Source of the DNA: an uncultured Pseudobdellovibrionaceae bacterium
GTDB lineage: Bacteria > Bdellovibrionota > Bdellovibrionia > Bdellovibrionales > UBA1609
NCBI GenBank assembly: GCA_964502735.1
Contig: CAZCYD010000002.1
Location: 74,218-138,217, forward strand
Length of the DNA stretch: 64,000 nucleotides
Direction of reading: 5' to 3'
In this document: positions 1,753 to 57,865 of the stretch, piece by piece
Layout: every line of letters begins with the position of its first letter
Position numbering within the stretch: position 1 is the stretch's first letter
Program-made: the position numbers and the translations under genes
Notes under the pieces: generated by a model
Databases searched by the model: none
What the model saw: only the letters and a program-made list of their open reading frames with translations
Told to the model about the DNA's origin: nothing

Positions 1753-3576
1753 TTGACAATGGTGGATAGTAATAAGCCCAATAAATCTAAAGCGGCGATA
1801 GAGAGGGAAAAAGTTTTAGCCGCACTTGATGCATTTGATGCTGAGGTGGTGGAAAACCCAGGATCTGTAGTAAAGGGAGCTGATGCTAATTTTGCAGAGC
1901 TTTTTAAAGAGTCTCTTGATGAAAGAGATTTTAACGTCGGTGATATCGTAACTGGACGAGTTGTTAATATTCTAGAAGATTTTGTTCTAGTGGATATCAA
2001 CTACAAAAGTGAAGGAATGATTCCCCTTTCTGAGTTTCGTTTACACGATGGGCAAAAAGCCATAAGTGTGGGTGAAACTGTCGAAGTTTATATTGATCGA
2101 GTTGAAAATGATAATGGAATGGTAGTTCTTTCTAAAGACAAAGCCGATATGCTTCGCGCTTGGAATGATATTTCTAAGGCAGCTGAAAATGAAGAGATTA
2201 TTGAAGGCACTATTGTTGCCAAAGTTAAAGGTGGCTTGAGTGTAGATATTGGTGTTAAGGCTTTCTTGCCAGGCAGTCAGATTGATTTGCGCCCAGTTCG
2301 AAATATGGATCACTATATCGGAAAGAAGTACAAGTTTAAGGTTATAAAATTTAATAAACGTCGTGGAAATATTGTTCTCTCCAGACGAGCCTTACTTGAA
2401 GAGGAAAGAGAGAGCTTGAGAACTCAAACACTGGATCAAATGGCTGAAGGGTCTGTAGTTAAAGGTATTGTTAAGAATATCACTGACTATGGGGCCTTTA
2501 TTGATTTAGGTGGAATGGATGGATTGCTTCATATCACAGACATGAGCTGGGGTAGGGTTAAGCATCCGTCTGAGTTATTAAATGTTGGTGACGAGATAGA
2601 TGTTCGTGTTCTTAAGTTTGACAATTCTAAAGAGAGAGTAAGTTTAGGATTGAAACAGCTGAGTGAAGACCCATGGGGACAAGTGGATGCAAACTTCCCG
2701 CAAGGCAAGAAGTTAAAGGGTAAGATCGTAAGCTTGGCTGAGTACGGTGCCTTCGTAGAGCTAGAGGATGGCATAGAGGGCCTTATTCACGTTAGTGAGA
2801 TGAGTTGGACCAAGAGAGTTAAACATCCTTCACAGTTGGTTAAGGTGGACGATGAAGTCGATGTTGTTGTTCTTGAGGTAGATAAGGCCAACAGACGCAT
2901 CAGCTTGGGAATGAAGCAGTTGGAATCTAATCCATGGCTTGAACTCAAAGAAACTTATCCTCCTGGTACTATTATTGAGGGAGAGATTAAGTCCCTAACA
3001 GACTTTGGTGTGTTCGTAGGAATAGAAGAGGGAATAGATGGATTGGTTCACATTTCTGACTTCTCTTGGACAAGACGCATCAATCACCCTTCTGAGATGT
3101 TTAATAAGGGAGATAAGGTTCGAGCCGTAGTTTTGGGAGTGGATATTGAAAATGAGCGCTTTAGCCTGGGTCTAAAACAACTAGAAGACGACCCTTGGTC
3201 GAATATCGAAAATAAGTTTCCTATTGGGTCTCAACATGAAGTTAAAGTTACCAAGGCTGCAGACTTCGGTGTTTTTGTTGAGTTGGAGCAGGATATCGAA
3301 GGCTTGATTCATATTTCAGAGTTGTCTCCTAAAAGGGTAGATAAGACTGAGGACTTTATTAAGGTTGGCGAGACTGTTAAAGCTGAAATTATTACCATCG
3401 ATAAAGATGCCCGTAAGATTGGCTTGAGCGCAAAGCTCGTGAAGCTTAGAGAGCAAAAGGCCGATGTTGAAGACTATGTTAAGAAAGCCACTTCAACGTC
3501 TAAGACAAGTCTCGGAGAGTTATTTGCCGATCAATTTAAAGATGCTGGTGTAACTCAACATAAGGGAGACGAATAG
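1753..3576 (+). CDS. rpsA: 30S ribosomal protein S1 (six S1 domains)
   Basis: A 607-aa ORF with repeated S1 motifs (G.IV.G.V....DFG.FV.L..G..GL.H.SE). AGGAGG lies at 1741-1746. The start is either TTG 1753 or ATG 1759. Confidence 0.95.
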   Translation: MTMVDSNKPNKSKAAIEREKVLAALDAFDAEVVENPGSVVKGADANFAELFKESLDERDFNVGDIVTGRVVNILEDFVLVDINYKSEGMIPLSEFRLHDGQKAISVGETVEVYIDRVENDNGMVVLSKDKADMLRAWNDISKAAENEEIIEGTIVAKVKGGLSVDIGVKAFLPGSQIDLRPVRNMDHYIGKKYKFKVIKFNKRRGNIVLSRRALLEEERESLRTQTLDQMAEGSVVKGIVKNITDYGAFIDLGGMDGLLHITDMSWGRVKHPSELLNVGDEIDVRVLKFDNSKERVSLGLKQLSEDPWGQVDANFPQGKKLKGKIVSLAEYGAFVELEDGIEGLIHVSEMSWTKRVKHPSQLVKVDDEVDVVVLEVDKANRRISLGMKQLESNPWLELKETYPPGTIIEGEIKSLTDFGVFVGIEEGIDGLVHISDFSWTRRINHPSEMFNKGDKVRAVVLGVDIENERFSLGLKQLEDDPWSNIENKFPIGSQHEVKVTKAADFGVFVELEQDIEGLIHISELSPKRVDKTEDFIKVGETVKAEIITIDKDARKIGLSAKLVKLREQKADVEDYVKKATSTSKTSLGELFADQFKDAGVTQHKGDE

Positions 3577-11472: not shown

Positions 11473-11502
11473 CTTGATGATTTTATACGTGGATTTGGGT
11501 TA
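11473..11502. repeat. Degenerate half-copy of the REP-like family
   Basis: CTTGATGATTTTATACGTGGATTTGGGTTA compared with the archetype CTTGACGCATTTTATACGCAGATTTGGGTAA at 37125-37155. It lies between convergent genes. Confidence 0.5.
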
Positions 11503-18145: not shown

Positions 18146-18327
18146 AATTAGAAAAATTTTTAGGATAGATTTTCAATGGGGTCAAGAAACGGCCTTCTTC
18201 TACTTGAAGAATCTCGTCAGCTATGGCAGAACCTGTAATGCACTGTATCTATATTTTATTTATGAACCCCATGAAATATGGACGTCCCAAATAAAAGGGC
18301 CCCTGAATCGTGGGTTGTGGAGTTCTC

Positions 18328-37115: not shown

Positions 37116-37156
37116 TTACCCAAATCTTGACGCATTTTATACGCAGATTTGGGTAA
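37116..37156. repeat. REP-like palindromic element (archetype): 12-bp perfect stem, 17-nt loop
   Basis: TTACCCAAATCT (37116-37127) pairs perfectly with AGATTTGGGTAA (37145-37156). The loop is TGACGCATTTTATACGC. Related copies lie at 40428, 51021-51188, 57828 and 11473. Confidence 0.85.
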
Positions 37157-40427: not shown

Positions 40428-40466
40428 GAAAATCTTAACGCATTTTATCCGCGGATTTGGGTAAAA
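40428..40466. repeat. REP-like family copy with a degenerate left arm
   Basis: AATCTTAACGCATTTTATCCGCGGATTTGGGTAAAATACA matches the archetype loop and right arm. It lies in the divergent ABC-F/ftsY spacer. Confidence 0.7.
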
Positions 40467-49319: not shown

Positions 49320-49441
49320 ATGCCCCTCACCCTCGCAACAGTATTGTTAACCCCAAAATTGTTCACCCACCAACATGGGGAATCATTTCGAATAAGTTTA
49401 ACACTTGCTTAATAATGGGCAATAGACTCTTGCTCAATTTT

Positions 49442-50893
49442 TTATAAAAAATTGAGTAATTGAGCGCAGTTCTTTTGATTGTTCTGACTTTGCAAGTTGA
49501 GTATGCGGTGGACAATTGAACTTCTGTACTTGGCGACAGATTGGGGACTTAGGCCTGAATGTGAAGCCTTGATGTTTGTGGACTCTTGGGAGTGATTCAT
49601 CGTGCCAAACATTAGGGCTTCTAGGTTTCTGTACAGTTGTCTATTGATTGAATCCACATGAAAGACTTCTGTTTGAAACTCGTAAATATCTGTTCCCGGC
49701 TGTGTTTGGTACTCCAGTATTTCATACAATTGATAAAAAAGATCTGTGTAGCGCGAATGATTTTTTTCAAACCACTTTAACCATTTTTGTTTTTTTACAG
49801 AAGAGTCTCCATTAATTTCATTTTGCTCCTGCAAAGCTAAAGCGGATAATTCAGAAAAGATTTTTGTGACCTTATCTTTTAAAGTTTCAAATTGTTCGCG
49901 AGTGTAGTTTTTGACTTGCCCATCGCGCTCCTGAAGACTTGCCAATTTTTTAACCAATGATTTTATTGCTCTTTCAACTTCGCTGAGGTGGGGGGTTGCT
50001 TGTTTGATAGATGAAACAAGTTGGTAAACGTCTGTTTTAAATTCAGTAGTTGTTGGATAAGCAGCGTAATTAGTAGCGTATACCAGACTTGTTGCAAGAT
50101 CGTGAGTAGGTAAAAGCTTGTGGGTTCTTAAATCTTTGATCTTAATAAATAAGGAATCTACATCATCTGCGAGATGTGAAATTGTTGATCGGGCTTCGTT
50201 AGACAGATGGCGGACGTAGTATCCATTCTCTTTTTCGAAGTCTAAGGCCACAATTTGATCTCTGAGTATTTCAATTTCCAAACGGATTTGAGTGAGAGTT
50301 TCTAGAACACCATCAATATGGTGGTACAAATCTAGAAAATTCTTTGTTTGAATCTTAGAAAGGGGTTGAAATTTTTGCTCATCCTCATCCTCATCCTCAT
50401 CCTCATCCAAAAGTTCAAGGCCTGTTGCAAAGTTTATTTTTTCTGGATTTTCATAAAAGTGTAGTGAGGGCTCGTATTCAGGCAATCTGTGAAACGCAAG
50501 AAACCCGTACTCATTTTGATGAGTGGAGTCCGTAGATTTTATAGACACCACCAGGCTTTGTTGGATGTACTCCTTAAAACTCTGTCCGTTGGGCCAAAGT
50601 TCGAGCTGTTCCAACCAATTTTCTTCCGATAGCAGGTGGAGGGAGTACCAGACCTCTGATGCTTTCTTGTACTCTTGGTGCAGACCTTCAATTTGTCTTT
50701 GAACTTTATGTAGTGCCGTTCTGGGATCACTACTAAAGCCCTCAAACATTCGTCTTTTTGAATCTGAGATTTCAACAGAAGAACCTGCAATTGAACTCAA
50801 GGCGCTTGCGAGCACTGTAAAAAAAATAAATGAAATTAAAATGTTATGTTTGAATTTACTTTCGTGTTTGTGTGTGTAAAAAGGGACTTGCAT
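49442..50893 (-). CDS. Hypothetical exported protein with an (ED)n acidic tract
   Basis: A 483-aa ORF with an N-terminal hydrophobic segment. No motif recognised. Confidence 0.5.
   Translation of the reverse strand: MQVPFYTHKHESKFKHNILISFIFFTVLASALSSIAGSSVEISDSKRRMFEGFSSDPRTALHKVQRQIEGLHQEYKKASEVWYSLHLLSEENWLEQLELWPNGQSFKEYIQQSLVVSIKSTDSTHQNEYGFLAFHRLPEYEPSLHFYENPEKINFATGLELLDEDEDEDEDEQKFQPLSKIQTKNFLDLYHHIDGVLETLTQIRLEIEILRDQIVALDFEKENGYYVRHLSNEARSTISHLADDVDSLFIKIKDLRTHKLLPTHDLATSLVYATNYAAYPTTTEFKTDVYQLVSSIKQATPHLSEVERAIKSLVKKLASLQERDGQVKNYTREQFETLKDKVTKIFSELSALALQEQNEINGDSSVKKQKWLKWFEKNHSRYTDLFYQLYEILEYQTQPGTDIYEFQTEVFHVDSINRQLYRNLEALMFGTMNHSQESTNIKASHSGLSPQSVAKYRSSIVHRILNLQSQNNQKNCAQLLNFL
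50379..50408. repeat. Hexanucleotide TCATCC x5 (encodes EDEDEDEDED on the minus strand)
   Basis: Five perfect tandem copies read directly. In frame within the 483-aa ORF. Confidence 0.9.
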
Positions 50894-51020
50894 CCGGTTG
50901 ATTAGACATCCCTATGGCTTATAAGGAAATTAGTTTTACCTTAAATGAAAAAAATTCAAATAGGATTTGTAAAAATGATTATAAAAAATAATAAAAATTT
51001 ATACAAGCCATTACAACATA

Positions 51021-51188
51021 CCCAAGGCCGCGGATAAAATGCATCAAAATTTCCTCAAACCCTTGTCTGGCGGGGACATCTCCGGCTTCGCCGCTGTCAC
51101 CCTTCGGGTGATCGCCTCCGGCTCATCGGAGCCCCGCTAGACAAGGGTTTGAGGAAATTTTGATGCATTTTTTATCCGCGGATTTGGG
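51021..51188. repeat. 168-nt extended hairpin: inverted doublet of the REP-like unit (REPIN-like) around a GC-rich three-hairpin core
   Basis: 51021-51075 pairs with 51132-51188 (~55 bp, with one 2-nt bulge, one mismatch and two G-T pairs). The core contains CGGC-TTC-GCCG (51083-51093), TCACCC-TTC-GGGTGA (51097-51111) and CTCCG-GCTCAT-CGGAG (51116-51131). Confidence 0.85.
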
Positions 51189-51191
51189 TGC

Positions 51192-51962
51192 TTAAGGTAT
51201 TCGGTTAATTTTTTTGGCTTGCCAAGCCTTGAAGTATTTTAGGAACACAGTAAAGCTGGCCATAATACTAATTGAAAACCCATAGGCACCATCTTGAAAT
51301 CCACGTTTGACTATGTAGGTCTTAAAAAAACGGAGCCAAGGGTTTAGAACGGCCTTAAGTAAAAGAAACTTTTCATTTTTCGACAACACTTTCTCCGCCC
51401 CTAAGGATGTGTAGCTTTTCATGCGCTCAATATGATCATCAATAGTATAATAAGAGTAGTGATTTAAGTGCCCCTTTAAATAGTCGATTTTGAGAGGTTT
51501 AGAAAACTCTATATGTTCGTGTACCTGTGCTGCATTCCATTGACTGCCTATTTTAGGAAATAGTCTAAGTTGATAGTCTGGAAACCAGCCGGAATGGTAA
51601 ATCCAAGTTCCACAATAATTGGTGATGCGGTTCAAATAGTAGGCGTGGTTCATTAAAATACGGGGCTTAAGCTCAAGGATTTCATTTTGCAATTCAGGGG
51701 ATAGTTCTTCATCAGCATCTATAGACAGAATGAAGTCGAACTGAGCATGGTCATTAGCAAAATTTTTAGTGGGAGAAAACCCCTTCCATTCTGTTTCAAT
51801 AAACTTTACTTTGGGAAACTTGAGGCAGATTTCTCGAGTTTTGTCTGTGCTTTTAGAGTCTGCAACAATAATCTCATCTGCAACGGGGTCTAGTGATTCC
51901 AGGCATCTCTTGATATTAAGTTCTTCATTCTTTGTTATTATAACAGCACTAATTTTTGCCAT
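51192..51962 (-). CDS. Family-2 glycosyltransferase
   Basis: ISAVIITKNEELNIKRCLESL and the DADEE (DxD-like) motif. ATG 51962 (MAKISAV...) is preferred over the TTG track start 51992. 14-nt overlap with the upstream GT gene. Confidence 0.8.
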   Translation of the reverse strand: MAKISAVIITKNEELNIKRCLESLDPVADEIIVADSKSTDKTREICLKFPKVKFIETEWKGFSPTKNFANDHAQFDFILSIDADEELSPELQNEILELKPRILMNHAYYLNRITNYCGTWIYHSGWFPDYQLRLFPKIGSQWNAAQVHEHIEFSKPLKIDYLKGHLNHYSYYTIDDHIERMKSYTSLGAEKVLSKNEKFLLLKAVLNPWLRFFKTYIVKRGFQDGAYGFSISIMASFTVFLKYFKAWQAKKINRIP

Positions 51963-53073
51963 TATTGACACATAACTTTTTATAGAGTTCAAAGCAAGCT
52001 CTTACCATTTGGTCTGCACTAAAGTGACTCTCCACAAATTGCATGCCTTTTAGAGAAAGCTGTTTTCTTAGTGGCTCATTCTTTAAGGCCAATTCTAGCT
52101 GCTCACACAATTGTTCTATATTTTTAGCTTGAAAACTCAAGCCATGTTCCTTATTTACGACAACTTCTTTAAGGCCGCCGGCGTCAGAGCTTATGACCGT
52201 GCAACCGGAAGCAAGAGCTTCAATGGCAACACTGCCGAGTCCCTCATGGTGTGAGGGCATTACAAATACATCCAAGCCAGCCAATAAAAGAGGAACTTGG
52301 TGGCAGAAACCTATTAGCTTTATGGGGAATGGAAAGTTTTGACTCGATATTATTTTTTTAAGTTCGGCCTTGAGGGGGCCTTCCCCCGCCATGATTACGG
52401 CAAATGGAGGGAGGTTATCTTTTTGAATCAAAAGAGACAGTGCCCTTATAAAATCGGCAAGACCTTTTTCTTTTGTTAAGGCTGAGGCGGTTCCAATATA
52501 TAAGCATTTGTCACTTATGTTTTTCTCATTTTTAAAATGCGAGCGGACAAAGTTCTGTCCTTCGTGAGATTTGCAATTGTATAGTGTTGTATCTACAGCA
52601 CTCGGGATCACTTCTATTTTTGAGGATTCAACCCCAGTTTCTAAAAGGCGCTGCTTAACTTCAGTTGAGATGGCAATATACTGATTAACTAATGGCGAGG
52701 AGTATTTTTTTTTGGATAGAATTAGGGGTGAGCTTTGAAAGGCCACCCTTCTGTGAACAATAAGTATAAGTTGTGGAAAAATGAACTTTAAAACTAAGCC
52801 GAAGCTATGAGCTTTTGAGCAGTGACAGTGGAGGATTTGAATTTTTTTTTCTTTTATAAATTGAGAAACTTTTAGAAGCGAGAAAGGATTAAAATAGCTG
52901 CGTCCGTTCAAAGATAGCAATTGTGACTTATTGATTCTTTCCGAGGCTTTTGATTTTAAGGGGTATGCAAAATAGTTGCTAACATTTAGGCGAGAAAGGC
53001 CTTCAGACAAAAGCTGAAGCTGTCGTTCCCCCCCTCTCCAAGACATGGCAAAGCTTATATGCAGTACGTTCAT
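51949..53073 (-). CDS. Family-4 (GT-B, RfaG-like) glycosyltransferase
   Basis: C-terminal EGLGSVAIEALASGCTVISSDAGGLKEVV (E-x7-E type motif). Length 374 aa. Confidence 0.85.
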   Translation of the reverse strand: MNVLHISFAMSWRGGERQLQLLSEGLSRLNVSNYFAYPLKSKASERINKSQLLSLNGRSYFNPFSLLKVSQFIKEKKIQILHCHCSKAHSFGLVLKFIFPQLILIVHRRVAFQSSPLILSKKKYSSPLVNQYIAISTEVKQRLLETGVESSKIEVIPSAVDTTLYNCKSHEGQNFVRSHFKNEKNISDKCLYIGTASALTKEKGLADFIRALSLLIQKDNLPPFAVIMAGEGPLKAELKKIISSQNFPFPIKLIGFCHQVPLLLAGLDVFVMPSHHEGLGSVAIEALASGCTVISSDAGGLKEVVVNKEHGLSFQAKNIEQLCEQLELALKNEPLRKQLSLKGMQFVESHFSADQMVRACFELYKKLCVNNGKN

Positions 53074-53097
53074 GTACAGAGACTATCAGACTCTGTA

Positions 53098-53241
53098 ACT
53101 TATACCAATTCCAAAAAATAATCGTCTAAAATTTTGTGAATGCACCTCACGCGCAGTTCCGCAGCCTTGAGGCTGCGGCTGTATGAGCATGAGGCGCATT
53201 CACAAAATTTTAGACGATTATTTTTTGGAATTGGTATAAGT
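53098..53241. repeat. 144-nt extended hairpin: perfect 46-bp inverted repeat around a GC-rich core
   Basis: 53098-53143 is the exact reverse complement of 53196-53241. Pairing continues with CCTCA/TGAGG (53145-53149/53190-53194) and CCGCAGCC-TTGA-GGCTGCGG (53159-53178). Confidence 0.9.
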
Positions 53242-53248
53242 ACACTGC

Positions 53249-53578
53249 CTATACGGCGAAAGAAGTGCCACATCCACAAGTTTTTGTGGCGTTTGGATTG
53301 GAGAAAACAAAGCCAGCACCATTGAGTCCGCCCTCATAATCAAGGGTCATACCAACAAGATAAAGGAGGCTTTGAGAGTCGATAACAATAGAAACGCCAT
53401 GATCTTGAAAAACTTTGTCCTTATCAGCATCCAGGTTTTTATCAAAATCTAACTTGTAGGAAAAACCGGAGCATCCACCACGCTGAACTTTAACTCGTAT
53501 AGAAACTGAATCCTCCAAATTCTCTTCAGACTTGAGCTGTTGAATTCGTTTTGCTGCGTTTTCAGAAATTTTAATCAT
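53249..53578 (-). CDS. erpA: HesB/IscA-family iron-sulfur cluster insertion protein
   Basis: RGGCSGFSY and the C-terminal CGCGTSF cysteine motifs. Length 109 aa. Confidence 0.88.
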   Translation of the reverse strand: MIKISENAAKRIQQLKSEENLEDSVSIRVKVQRGGCSGFSYKLDFDKNLDADKDKVFQDHGVSIVIDSQSLLYLVGMTLDYEGGLNGAGFVFSNPNATKTCGCGTSFAV

Positions 53579-53774
53579 GTTCTACACCTTCCCGAAGAGA
53601 CAAAAAAATGTCAACGCGACGCTGGGTTGCGTGGTCGACCGTTAATCTCCACTTATCCATTATAACTGCTTGAGCGAGTTTTCAACAACAAAATAAGTTA
53701 AAATAAAACTTATTTAAGAAAAAATGAGGTCTCAATCTCTTTTTGGGGCCAGAGGGAGAGATTTGAATCACAAT

Positions 53775-55211
53775 TTAAACCTTTGTAACAACTTGGGTTT
53801 GGTAGGATTCAAGCACTTTGTCAAAAATTTTTCTCCCGTTTATTTTAGCTCTGAGAGCGGCTAAAACTGTAAATGTACCCCCCATTTTTCTATCGAGAAA
53901 AAGTAATTCTTTGGGGGGAGTGCGAAATTTAAACCGAAAAACGATACTTTTTCCTGCCGATGCGATTCGATGAGGGAGGTCACTTTGAGCGTAATTATAG
54001 TTCCCCGCCTTGTCAAAACCGGGGGGACAATTTGAAGAAGAGTAATCCCCCTTCCAGAAAGGTTCAGTAAACATAAAACAAAGGTCTATATATTGCTCTA
54101 CAAGTTCTTGAGGATCATTTTCTTTTACTAAGCCAAGAATTTTAGCCCCCTTTAATAAGGTTATTCGATCTTTTTGAATCGAGCCAAAAATAATTTTTTT
54201 ATAGGCCTCAAAGAAATCAGGAGAGACTTTTTTTACGGCTCCATAGTCGTAAAGTACTAATTTAGGCTTTTCATTTGGGGGCATGTGTACACCATAGTTT
54301 CCGAGATGAGGATCTGTTTGTACAATTCCAAACTCAAAAAGTTCACGAAAATAAAGCTCTAAAAATTTTTCAGCTAAATAGTTGCGTAGTTCCTGAGGCA
54401 ATCTTTGCGCCTCAATCGAATCTAGTCTCAAACTGGGCTCATAACTCATAGTCAGAACCCTACTGGTTGAAAATTCCTTTATGGGGTTAGGAATAATAAA
54501 GCAGGAGTCATTCTTGAGGGACTCTCGTATTTGAGTGAGTGACTCAAGTTCGGCTGAATAATTAAGTTCTTGAAGCAACATTTCTTTGACTTCAATAAAG
54601 ATGTGTTCAATCGGACCGTCCTTAGGTAAAAAGGAGAGAAGGCCAAGTAGTTTTTTAAGGGCTTTAAGGTCCGCATCAATTACTGAACTCAGGTTTGGAT
54701 ATTGGACTTTTAAAACAATATCTTGTTCCTTGTAACGAGCTTTGTATACCTGCCCGAGTGAAGCACTTGCGATAGGGTCTTTGTCAATTTCAAGTTCGCT
54801 TAACTTTTTGGGGCCGAGTTCTTTGTCTAAAGTTTTTTTCATAATGGACCAATCTATCGATGGGGAGTTGGATTGCAGGGTCTTTAAAACTTCAATGGCT
54901 TCAGGGGGAAGAAAGTGCTCTCCGTAAACAGATAACTGCTGTCCGACTTTCATTAGAGAGCCTTTTAATTCCCCAAGCTCGTTTGTAACAATCTCAACTT
55001 GTTTTAAAAGAGTTCTTTTTTTTATAGACTCGGCGGCTTTGGAGTTTAAAACTTTTTGTATATTTTCTTTGGCTGCTAAGGCTCCGGTTTGAAGTGTGAT
55101 TTTAGACAGGGCAAGCCCTCTTGACAAAATTGTATTGCGAAGCTTCTTAAGTGTTTTTTTTTGCTTGGTCAACTGCATCTCCTTTGGAGTTTGAGTTAAA
55201 GCTAAAGTCAC
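53775..55211 (-). CDS. ABC1/UbiB-family atypical protein kinase
   Basis: ASLGQVYKA...VLKVQYPN (Gly-rich/Lys region) and QTDPHLGNY (catalytic-loop equivalent). Length 478 aa. Confidence 0.8.
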   Translation of the reverse strand: MTLALTQTPKEMQLTKQKKTLKKLRNTILSRGLALSKITLQTGALAAKENIQKVLNSKAAESIKKRTLLKQVEIVTNELGELKGSLMKVGQQLSVYGEHFLPPEAIEVLKTLQSNSPSIDWSIMKKTLDKELGPKKLSELEIDKDPIASASLGQVYKARYKEQDIVLKVQYPNLSSVIDADLKALKKLLGLLSFLPKDGPIEHIFIEVKEMLLQELNYSAELESLTQIRESLKNDSCFIIPNPIKEFSTSRVLTMSYEPSLRLDSIEAQRLPQELRNYLAEKFLELYFRELFEFGIVQTDPHLGNYGVHMPPNEKPKLVLYDYGAVKKVSPDFFEAYKKIIFGSIQKDRITLLKGAKILGLVKENDPQELVEQYIDLCFMFTEPFWKGDYSSSNCPPGFDKAGNYNYAQSDLPHRIASAGKSIVFRFKFRTPPKELLFLDRKMGGTFTVLAALRAKINGRKIFDKVLESYQTQVVTKV

Positions 55212-57827: not shown

Positions 57828-57865
57828 ACCCAAATCTTGACGCATTTTATCCGCAGATCTGGGCT
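57828..57865. repeat. REP-like family copy filling the gap between convergent genes
   Basis: ACCCAAATCT-TGACGCATTTTATCCGC-AGATCTGGGCT, with one stem mismatch. It lies between stop codons at 57824-57826 (+) and 57864-57866 (-). Confidence 0.8.

Follow-up and report, generated by a model that had tools for sequence, protein, structure and literature searches.

Gene neighborhood of the erpA–GT4 junction

The window, which is the whole 64,000-nucleotide stretch of DNA analyzed here, contains a 144-nt foldback element (hairpin A, positions 53098–53241, minus strand) between an erpA-like gene and a GT4-family glycosyltransferase gene, where the first-pass annotation of this DNA had placed it. Read along the minus strand, the order is an ABC1 kinase gene (53775–55211), the erpA-like gene for an A-type Fe–S carrier (PF01521; 53249–53578), hairpin A, the GT4 gene (51949–53073), a GT2-family glycosyltransferase gene that overlaps the end of the GT4 gene (51192–51992), a second foldback (foldback B), and an ORF of 483 amino acids. 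The stop codon of the erpA-like gene lies 7 nt upstream of hairpin A, and the GT4 start codon (ATG at 53073) lies 24 nt downstream. This ATG is taken as the true start of the GT4 gene because the N terminus that it opens, MNVLHI, is conserved in relatives. The 24-nt tail between hairpin A and the start codon (53074–53097, minus strand) is locus specific and falls outside the element, as it is absent from the flank of the second copy described below, and the small hairpin that it can form is not significant (z = −0.5). We found neither a transposase gene nor an integrase gene in the window and its flanks (approximately 83 kb), and the window otherwise consists of the usual housekeeping sequence of a chromosome. 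Judging by the source names attached to the homologues found, the host is an uncultured Bdellovibrionaceae-like bacterium.

The 483-aa protein (ORF 49442–50893) carries a hydrophobic segment at its N terminus and gave no hit in Pfam; each of the three relatives has a counterpart of it next to the glycosyltransferase genes (461, 461, and 448 aa). A 22-nt perfect palindrome made up of A and T only (TCAATTTTTTATAAAAAATTGA, 49434–49455) overlaps the stop codon of this ORF.

Sequence and predicted fold of hairpin A

Recomputation of the inverted repeat showed that 53098–53143 is the exact reverse complement of 53196–53241, as claimed in the first-pass annotation, which had also described the inner pairing of CCTCA (53145–53149) with TGAGG (53190–53194) and the apical stem-loop, both of which are present. 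When up to three mismatches were allowed, the 46-mer still occurred in the window only at these two sites, with none expected from 100 shuffles. At 95% complementarity, the inverted repeat reaches arms of 58 nt (53098–53155 and 53184–53241). In the sense orientation, the 5′ arm (53196–53241, minus strand) is 46 nt long, and the 3′ arm (53098–53143, minus strand) carries a U-rich run, AUUAUUUUUU (53122–53113, minus strand), directly 3′ of an inner stem of 41 bp. Between the arms lies a GC-rich core of 52 nt (53144–53195, minus strand). Two G·U pairs, the CCTCA/TGAGG pairing, a minor internal loop, and the apical stem all fall within this core. At the apex, CCGCAGCC-TTGA-GGCTGCGG (53159–53178, minus strand) forms a stem of 8 bp capped by a tetraloop, which reads UCAA on the minus strand. 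The GC content is 26% in the arms and 64% in the core, compared with 39.5% in the window as a whole.

The predicted RNA fold of hairpin A has a free energy of −102 kcal/mol on the plus strand and −113.2 kcal/mol on the minus strand, whereas shuffled sequences average approximately −34 kcal/mol (z = −19 to −20; none of 200 shuffles folded equally well). The minus strand is the sense strand for the genes on either side. In its fold, the two mismatches between the arms become G·U pairs, and the molecule folds into 55 consecutive pairs followed by two more and then by the GC-rich apex of 8 bp. Such a stem is far longer than an intrinsic terminator needs, a point on which we agree with the earlier annotation. 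The ORF called at 53140–53325 was likewise recognized there as an artifact of the palindrome, and a protein search with its translation (53140–53322, plus strand) returned no homologue. Hairpin A has no coding capacity, and for the ORFs crossing it, the read-through of the second copy is the sole homologue.

Independent sequencing runs

To look up contigs of the same locus, we used exact-protein matches to the ErpA and GT4 proteins among Logan contigs. Contigs from at least four independent runs (SRR15327643, SRR31093301, SRR31093302, and SRR9016295) enter the arms of hairpin A. One of these contigs comes from a strain 99.6% identical to the window, and the remainder are 100% identical. Each reaches an arm from the expected side and halts approximately 30 nt inside, at 53213, 53210, and 53127, and one contig found in three samples spans exactly from inside hairpin A to inside the second hairpin, at 51142. 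Such breaks are what graph assemblies with k = 31 show at perfect inverted repeats longer than k.

A chimeric foldback made by the assembler is an extremely improbable source of hairpin A. Short-read graph assemblies do handle perfect inverted repeats badly, and all Logan contigs end within the arms; however, independent runs place both outer arm segments next to the flanks where they belong, and a separate contig encodes an independent second copy whose core is the same. Hairpin A is therefore real and not an assembly artifact. There is a practical side to this behavior, as perfect foldbacks of this type break short-read assemblies, and every k = 31 contig ended within hairpin A. They also spawn false ORFs, one of which was our sole handle on the second copy.

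The orthologous junction in related bacteria

A protein-guided scan led to one related genome, that of Bdellovibrionaceae bacterium HK-STAS-BDEL-6 (locus L006), whose ABC1 kinase is 61% identical to that of the window. Here, the order is ABC1-iscS-erpA-GT4-GT2-ORF461, and the erpA–GT4 spacer measures 9 nt (TAG tttttatta ATG). The gene layout of a further locus, L007, is identical to that of L006, and a different relative (L008) has a spacer of 8 nt (TAA ttaacatc ATG). The first-pass annotation had proposed an insertion and a comparison of the orthologous junction, and this comparison bears the proposal out: in two related Bdellovibrionaceae species, the spacer is 8 to 9 nt long and has no hairpin, whereas it is 175 nt long in the window. 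The spacer between the GT2 gene and the next gene is also longer in the window, at 298 nt versus 150 nt in L006 and 215 nt in L008, a difference of approximately the size of foldback B. No inverted repeat of at least 16 nt was found at either junction (erpA–GT4 or GT2–next gene) in L006, L007, or L008. Closer relatives were not found in the databases; apart from the self-hit at 100%, the most similar GT4 homologue has an identity of 48%.

Because the junctions of the relatives are shorter and free of such inverted repeats, we interpret foldbacks A and B as lineage-specific additions within a conserved gene string. Hairpin A almost certainly occupies an erpA–GT4 junction that was formerly translationally coupled.

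Other differences between the loci lie outside the two foldbacks. In L006 (11301–12524) and L007 (4308–5531), a cysteine desulfurase gene (Aminotran_5) lies between the ABC1 kinase gene and erpA, where the window has only a spacer of 196 nt (53579–53774). The Fe–S gene pair has therefore been broken up in the window lineage. This spacer upstream of erpA contains a TATAAT box (approximately 53664–53659) and a terminator-like hairpin with a T-run (53624–53612). In L008, the GT4 gene (2113–3174) appears to be frameshifted, as its conserved N terminus MNVLHIGTESSWRGGENQ begins at 2114 and the long ORF only at 2272, which would represent either a pseudogene or an assembly error.

A second copy with compensated stem changes

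The minus-strand reading frame is open through the whole of hairpin A, and we used the resulting 47-aa read-through peptide (53103–53243, minus strand) as the query for a HMMER search of 1.84 billion representative proteins. The search found P0121, a predicted protein of 74 aa (E = 7.6e-18) in which 38 of 46 residues are identical in an ungapped alignment, and which is encoded on a single NCBI contig of 26,774 nt. The first 46 residues of P0121 correspond to the hairpin, and the last 26 represent a different flank that cannot encode the GT4 start. This 26-aa flank has no match in the window or in the fetched loci, and the same protein database holds no GT4 homologue with an identity between 48% and 100%. 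The locus of the second copy is therefore a different one, which probably belongs to the same metagenome-assembled genome and would most simply be on another of its contigs. When P0121 was itself used as the query of a second protein search, only P0121 was returned.

As the second copy is known from its predicted protein alone, the two copies were compared by codon constraints, to which silent differences and the exact ends are invisible. The ORF reads through both arms, so each arm is subject to codon constraints of its own. These constraints require four stem pairs of the second copy to differ from the window copy on both arms, and all four can still pair: 53237:53102 (A:T to T:A), 53235:53104 (A:T to Y:G), 53231:53108 (A:T to T:A), and 53227:53112 (C:G to A:T). 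Three further changes, each forced on one side, are compatible with pairing, and none of the pairs at stem positions 3 to 59 is broken. At the G·U pair 53195:53144, a Cys to Arg codon change can restore G:C. The covariation thus defined by two copies involves the outer approximately 15 bp of the stem. At the amino acid level, no difference is seen in the inner stem or in the remainder of the core, apart from the apical loop, where UCAA is inferred to become UCGA. When synonymous choices were optimized, the true pairing register allowed 65 of 74 pairs, compared with 37 to 55 in shifted registers. The outermost pair, 53241:53098, is lost in the second copy, and the element proper therefore extends from approximately 53099 to 53240. 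The apex is asymmetric and points the same way in the two copies, with 83% identity to the minus strand translation versus 56% to the plus strand translation.

The first-pass annotation had explained the perfect stem by either a recent MITE-like insertion or strong selection. Each proposal holds in part: there is a diverged second copy elsewhere with compensated stem differences, and recency alone is not an adequate explanation. Since the stem differences are compensated on both arms, the perfect stem reflects symmetry that is maintained in a repeat family and not merely a recent origin.

Searches for further copies and homologues

No further copy of hairpin A was found in approximately 83 kb of the host (the window and about 19 kb of flanks), and an exact 20-mer from the inner arm had no match in 185,579 GTDB species-representative genomes. 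The only match to the same 20-mer in the JGI metagenomes was attributed to chance, as it covers 22 nt upstream of a ychF-like gene on an unrelated contig with no hairpin. The seven matches of the terminal 20-mer in IMG/VR are of the same nature, all representing one homologous giant-virus coding region over 20 to 21 nt. A blastn search of plasmid and phage collections with the whole spacer returned no match. In Rfam release 15, no family reached its gathering threshold, the best match being Clostridiales-1 (RF01699) at 25.7 bits against a threshold of 48.

On the same chromosome, approximately 7 kb past the right end of the window, there is another perfect palindrome of 23 bp with a 3-nt loop (AGCAGAAGACTAATAATTTTTTT TGC AAAAAAATTATTAGTCTTCTGCT; 18180–18228 of locus L016). 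It is contained in a called gene that belongs to a carotenoid-type cluster, with phytoene synthase and desaturase neighbors, and its motif AGAC..TAAT..TTTTTT loosely recalls the arm of hairpin A.

Foldback B and a REP-like family

Foldback B (51020–51189, assigned to neither strand) is 170 nt long, starts 2 nt after the GT2 stop codon, and has a sequence unlike that of hairpin A. Its predicted fold is approximately −117 to −124 kcal/mol, and it consists of outer arms of 20 nt, inner arms of 40 nt with 98% complementarity, and a GC-rich core of 56 nt that has a C(UUCG)G loop on the plus strand. The outer arms are two inverted copies of a REP-like unit of 23 to 26 nt, GAYGCATTTTATCCGCRGATTTGGGT, with the conserved part GCATTTTATCCGCRGATTTGGGT. 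The unit also occurs singly at 37119–37154, 57828–57864, 40437–40462, and 11478–11500, which brings the number to six in 64 kb, and the full singlets have the form ACCCAAATCT-N17-AGATTTGGGT. Singlets are situated in convergent and divergent intergenic spacers and sometimes make up the whole gap between two stop codons. This distribution, together with a −35/−10 spacing of approximately 21 nt, led us to reject a sigma-70 promoter motif as an explanation of the family. Neither the REP-like family nor foldback B was found in the approximately 40 kb of related genomes.

An inverted REP doublet with singlets elsewhere is a REPIN feature that fits foldback B and not hairpin A, and foldback B is REPIN-like in architecture. 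Hairpin A had been described in the first-pass annotation as unrelated to the REP-like family, and the similarity is indeed not significant, as 218 of 2000 shuffles scored as well. By the same comparison, homology between hairpins A and B was rejected, and only their architecture is common to both. Hairpin repeats of more than one kind are thus present in the host genome, and two of them, foldbacks A and B, which lie 2 kb apart, happen to bracket the pair of glycosyltransferase genes, an arrangement that the first-pass annotation had overlooked.

Proposed origin and effect on the operon

Taking these results together, we consider it reasonably probable that hairpin A is a copy of a small noncoding dispersed repeat of approximately 142 to 144 nt, palindromic over its whole length and MITE- or REPIN-like, which inserted at the erpA–GT4 junction and from which we infer a function that is probably operon punctuation. 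According to this model, the element would have entered the junction of 8 to 9 nt between erpA and the first of the two glycosyltransferase genes. Its arms would be symmetrical since the hairpin itself is propagated or selected, either as single-stranded DNA in a transposition without target duplication or as RNA.

Because hairpin A lies on the sense strand 7 nt past the erpA stop codon, it would be cotranscribed with erpA and would form an RNA duplex of approximately 55 bp or more. A perfect RNA duplex of this length is a textbook substrate of RNase III, and Correia and ERIC transcripts undergo RNase III cleavage or show altered mRNA stability. Within hairpin A, the inner stem of 41 bp has a predicted fold of −80.7 kcal/mol and is flanked on the sense strand by AAAAAAUAAU before it (53217–53226 in plus-strand coordinates) and AUUAUUUUUU after it (53113–53122). 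This succession of A-tract, stem, and U-tract has the layout of a bidirectional intrinsic terminator that is extended by an outer stem of 14 bp, and the layout makes punctuation of the former operon the most likely effect. Partial termination and/or RNase III cleavage at hairpin A would probably be the means of such punctuation. In this case, erpA would be uncoupled from GT4 and GT2, a stable protective 3′ hairpin would be left on the erpA message, and the intact and conserved glycosyltransferase genes would be expressed through read-through.

Several more specific signals were considered at the hairpin and set aside. There is no U-run after the complete stem on either strand, and a consensus terminator scan found no site at hairpin A. 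A canonical intrinsic terminator was rejected, as the only U-run, AUUAUUUUUU, is internal and follows the AT-rich inner stem of 41 bp. The arm also holds a candidate promoter that would be directed outward (TAGACG-18-TGgTATAAG); its −10 box does not end in the conserved T, and the scan did not report it, which leaves it a weak possibility. Finally, the strand asymmetry of the G·U pairs was not accepted as a sign of selection on the sense RNA, as it concerns two positions only and favors the sense strand in hairpin A and the antisense strand in foldback B.

Nothing relevant was found in the literature on repeats in Bdellovibrio, and, to our knowledge, small palindromic repeats of this kind are undescribed in this lineage of predatory bacteria. 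Hairpin A is a small palindromic repeat that splits a tightly coupled gene pair in this lineage. If it terminates transcription or is cleaved, it would illustrate how a mobile hairpin can rewire an operon in nature.

Alternative explanations

A selected structured RNA, as opposed to mobile DNA, is in our judgment an unlikely identity for hairpin A. It would then belong to a small family of cis-acting or processed RNAs, such as an RNase III-processed hairpin or an sRNA precursor, in which the apex and inner stem are sequence specific and the outer stem only pairs. The conserved core with an outer stem that covaries between the two copies is what such a family would display, and the apex keeps its orientation relative to the reading direction (83% versus 56%). 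In addition, both arm mismatches are G·U pairs on the sense strand, and the best subthreshold Rfam match, at 25.7 bits, is to the long-hairpin family Clostridiales-1. However, hairpin A is missing at the same junction in two related species and hence is not an old regulatory feature of the operon, and foldback B shows the opposite G·U bias, on the antisense strand. Moreover, no Rfam family was found at threshold, the known copies number only two, and a perfect duplex of 46 bp exceeds the needs of any known RNA function. A broader proposal, which is speculative and which we regard as quite unlikely, is that the Bdellovibrionota have a hitherto undescribed class of hairpin elements that includes hairpin A and perhaps foldback B. 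The conserved GC-rich apex and inner stem would then be functional, either as an RNA module recognized by a protein or an RNase that yields processed small RNAs or as a hairpin for HUH-type single-strand mobilization, and the outer stem would be free to covary. Such elements would insert without target duplication directly after stop codons and rewire operons.

Template switching creates, lengthens, and homogenizes the arms of inverted repeats (PMC8794818, PMC8604942, PMC13100816), and snap-back copying in place could have grown a terminator-like hairpin outward by inverted copying of its flank, in which case the perfect arms would reflect recent mutation. Beyond the documentation of such switching, this account can draw on the resemblance of foldback B to a mirrored preexisting REP-like unit and on the fact that homogenization of arms also yields apparent compensatory changes. 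We nevertheless consider it very unlikely, as a second copy with the same arms and apex at a different locus needs duplication or transposition and not only local mirroring, and with an ancestral spacer of approximately 9 nt, neither arm is ancestral local sequence. Still more improbable, in our assessment, is a very strong bidirectional intrinsic terminator for erpA that is neither mobile nor a repeat. The start of hairpin A 7 nt past the erpA stop codon and the A-tract and U-tract that flank the inner stem of 41 bp would suit a terminator, but the full stem has no U-run following it, and the consensus scan was negative there. Furthermore, the erpA–GT4 gap of the relatives, at 8 to 9 nt, has no terminator, a second copy exists elsewhere, and the downstream glycosyltransferase genes are intact and need expression.

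Comparison with known repeat elements

We compared hairpin A, as a dispersed palindromic repeat, with the known systems of this kind. It matches the MITE/REPIN class in that it is of similar size, extragenic, and without coding capacity and has inverted ends and a compensated hairpin. Among the features of MITEs, terminal inverted repeats are present (46 nt perfect; 58 nt at 95%), and its 144 nt fit a small and noncoding element. As for multiple dispersed copies, one second copy was found through P0121 and none more in 83 kb. No convincing target-site duplication was found at the window copy, in agreement with the first-pass annotation; there is only an ambiguous TA, which needs asymmetric ends. 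Neither was one found in the flanks of the second copy, which are inferred from P0121 as ATG|...|AAYCC, and no duplication is common to both copies. A direct repeat of TGTAC (53244–53240 and 53078–53074) was rejected as a target duplication because it needs the 24-nt tail, which is absent from the second copy and whose hairpin is not significant. Excision at the TGTAC repeats would leave a spacer of 9 nt, as in the relatives. An integron attC site was rejected as well: hairpin A lacks GTTRRRY/RYYYAAC ends, its stem is perfect without extrahelical bases, there is no integrase, and the flanked glycosyltransferase genes have the same order in relatives and hence do not form a cassette.

REPINs are REP doublets that form hairpins and are mobilized by RAYT tyrosine transposases (PMC3116915), and their long hairpins show frequent compensatory changes (PMC3116915, Bertels & Rainey 2011). 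Like hairpin A, they are noncoding and extragenic, measure approximately 100 nt or more, form one long hairpin with compensatory changes, and are expected to have no target duplication. Compensatory hairpin changes are seen in hairpin A between two copies, one of which is known from codon constraints only. However, REPINs have conserved ends and a variable spacer, whereas hairpin A has variable, covarying ends and a conserved center. High copy number is also characteristic of REPINs, whereas two copies of hairpin A are documented, and its arms do not derive from a recognizable REP singlet, as no singlet matching them was found in the window or flanks (83 kb). A RAYT (Y1 transposase) gene was not found in the same 83 kb, an absence that says little, as RAYTs are single copy.

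MITEs with lengths of 100 to 170 nt form a well-recognized class, of which Correia, ERIC, and Nezha are examples (PMC3184786). The elements Correia/NEMIS of Neisseria, ERIC/IRU of enterobacteria, RUP, and Nezha, which are cotranscribed with neighboring genes, resemble hairpin A in size, in inverted-repeat ends, in forming RNA hairpins, and in their intergenic position inside transcription units (PMC3184786). They differ in that bacterial MITEs have terminal inverted repeats of 20 to 30 nt, whereas the palindrome of hairpin A covers nearly the whole element and its terminal bases are not the conserved part. Hairpin A also has no sequence similarity to bacterial MITEs, no TA or other duplication at its ends, two documented copies, and no parent IS found within 83 kb. 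SPRITE and other terminator-like repeats (Croucher et al. 2011, cited in PMC3184786) are like hairpin A in being dispersed, similar to Rho-independent terminators, and located at gene ends; hairpin A differs from them in its much longer stem, in a U-run internal to the stem, and in having no sequence relationship. Clostridiales-1 RNA (RF01699), whose function is unknown, is a long and nearly uninterrupted hairpin of similar length. The likeness to hairpin A is one of shape only, with 25.7 bits against a threshold of 48 and a different phylum.

Covarying termini around a conserved core are the reverse of what is seen in REPINs and in MITEs that depend on a transposase acting at terminal inverted repeats, and the pattern is unusual for MITEs. 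It hints at either a structure-reading, single-strand mobilization without target duplication or selection on RNA. Overall, the family to which hairpin A belongs is new, and the kind of element that it represents is familiar.
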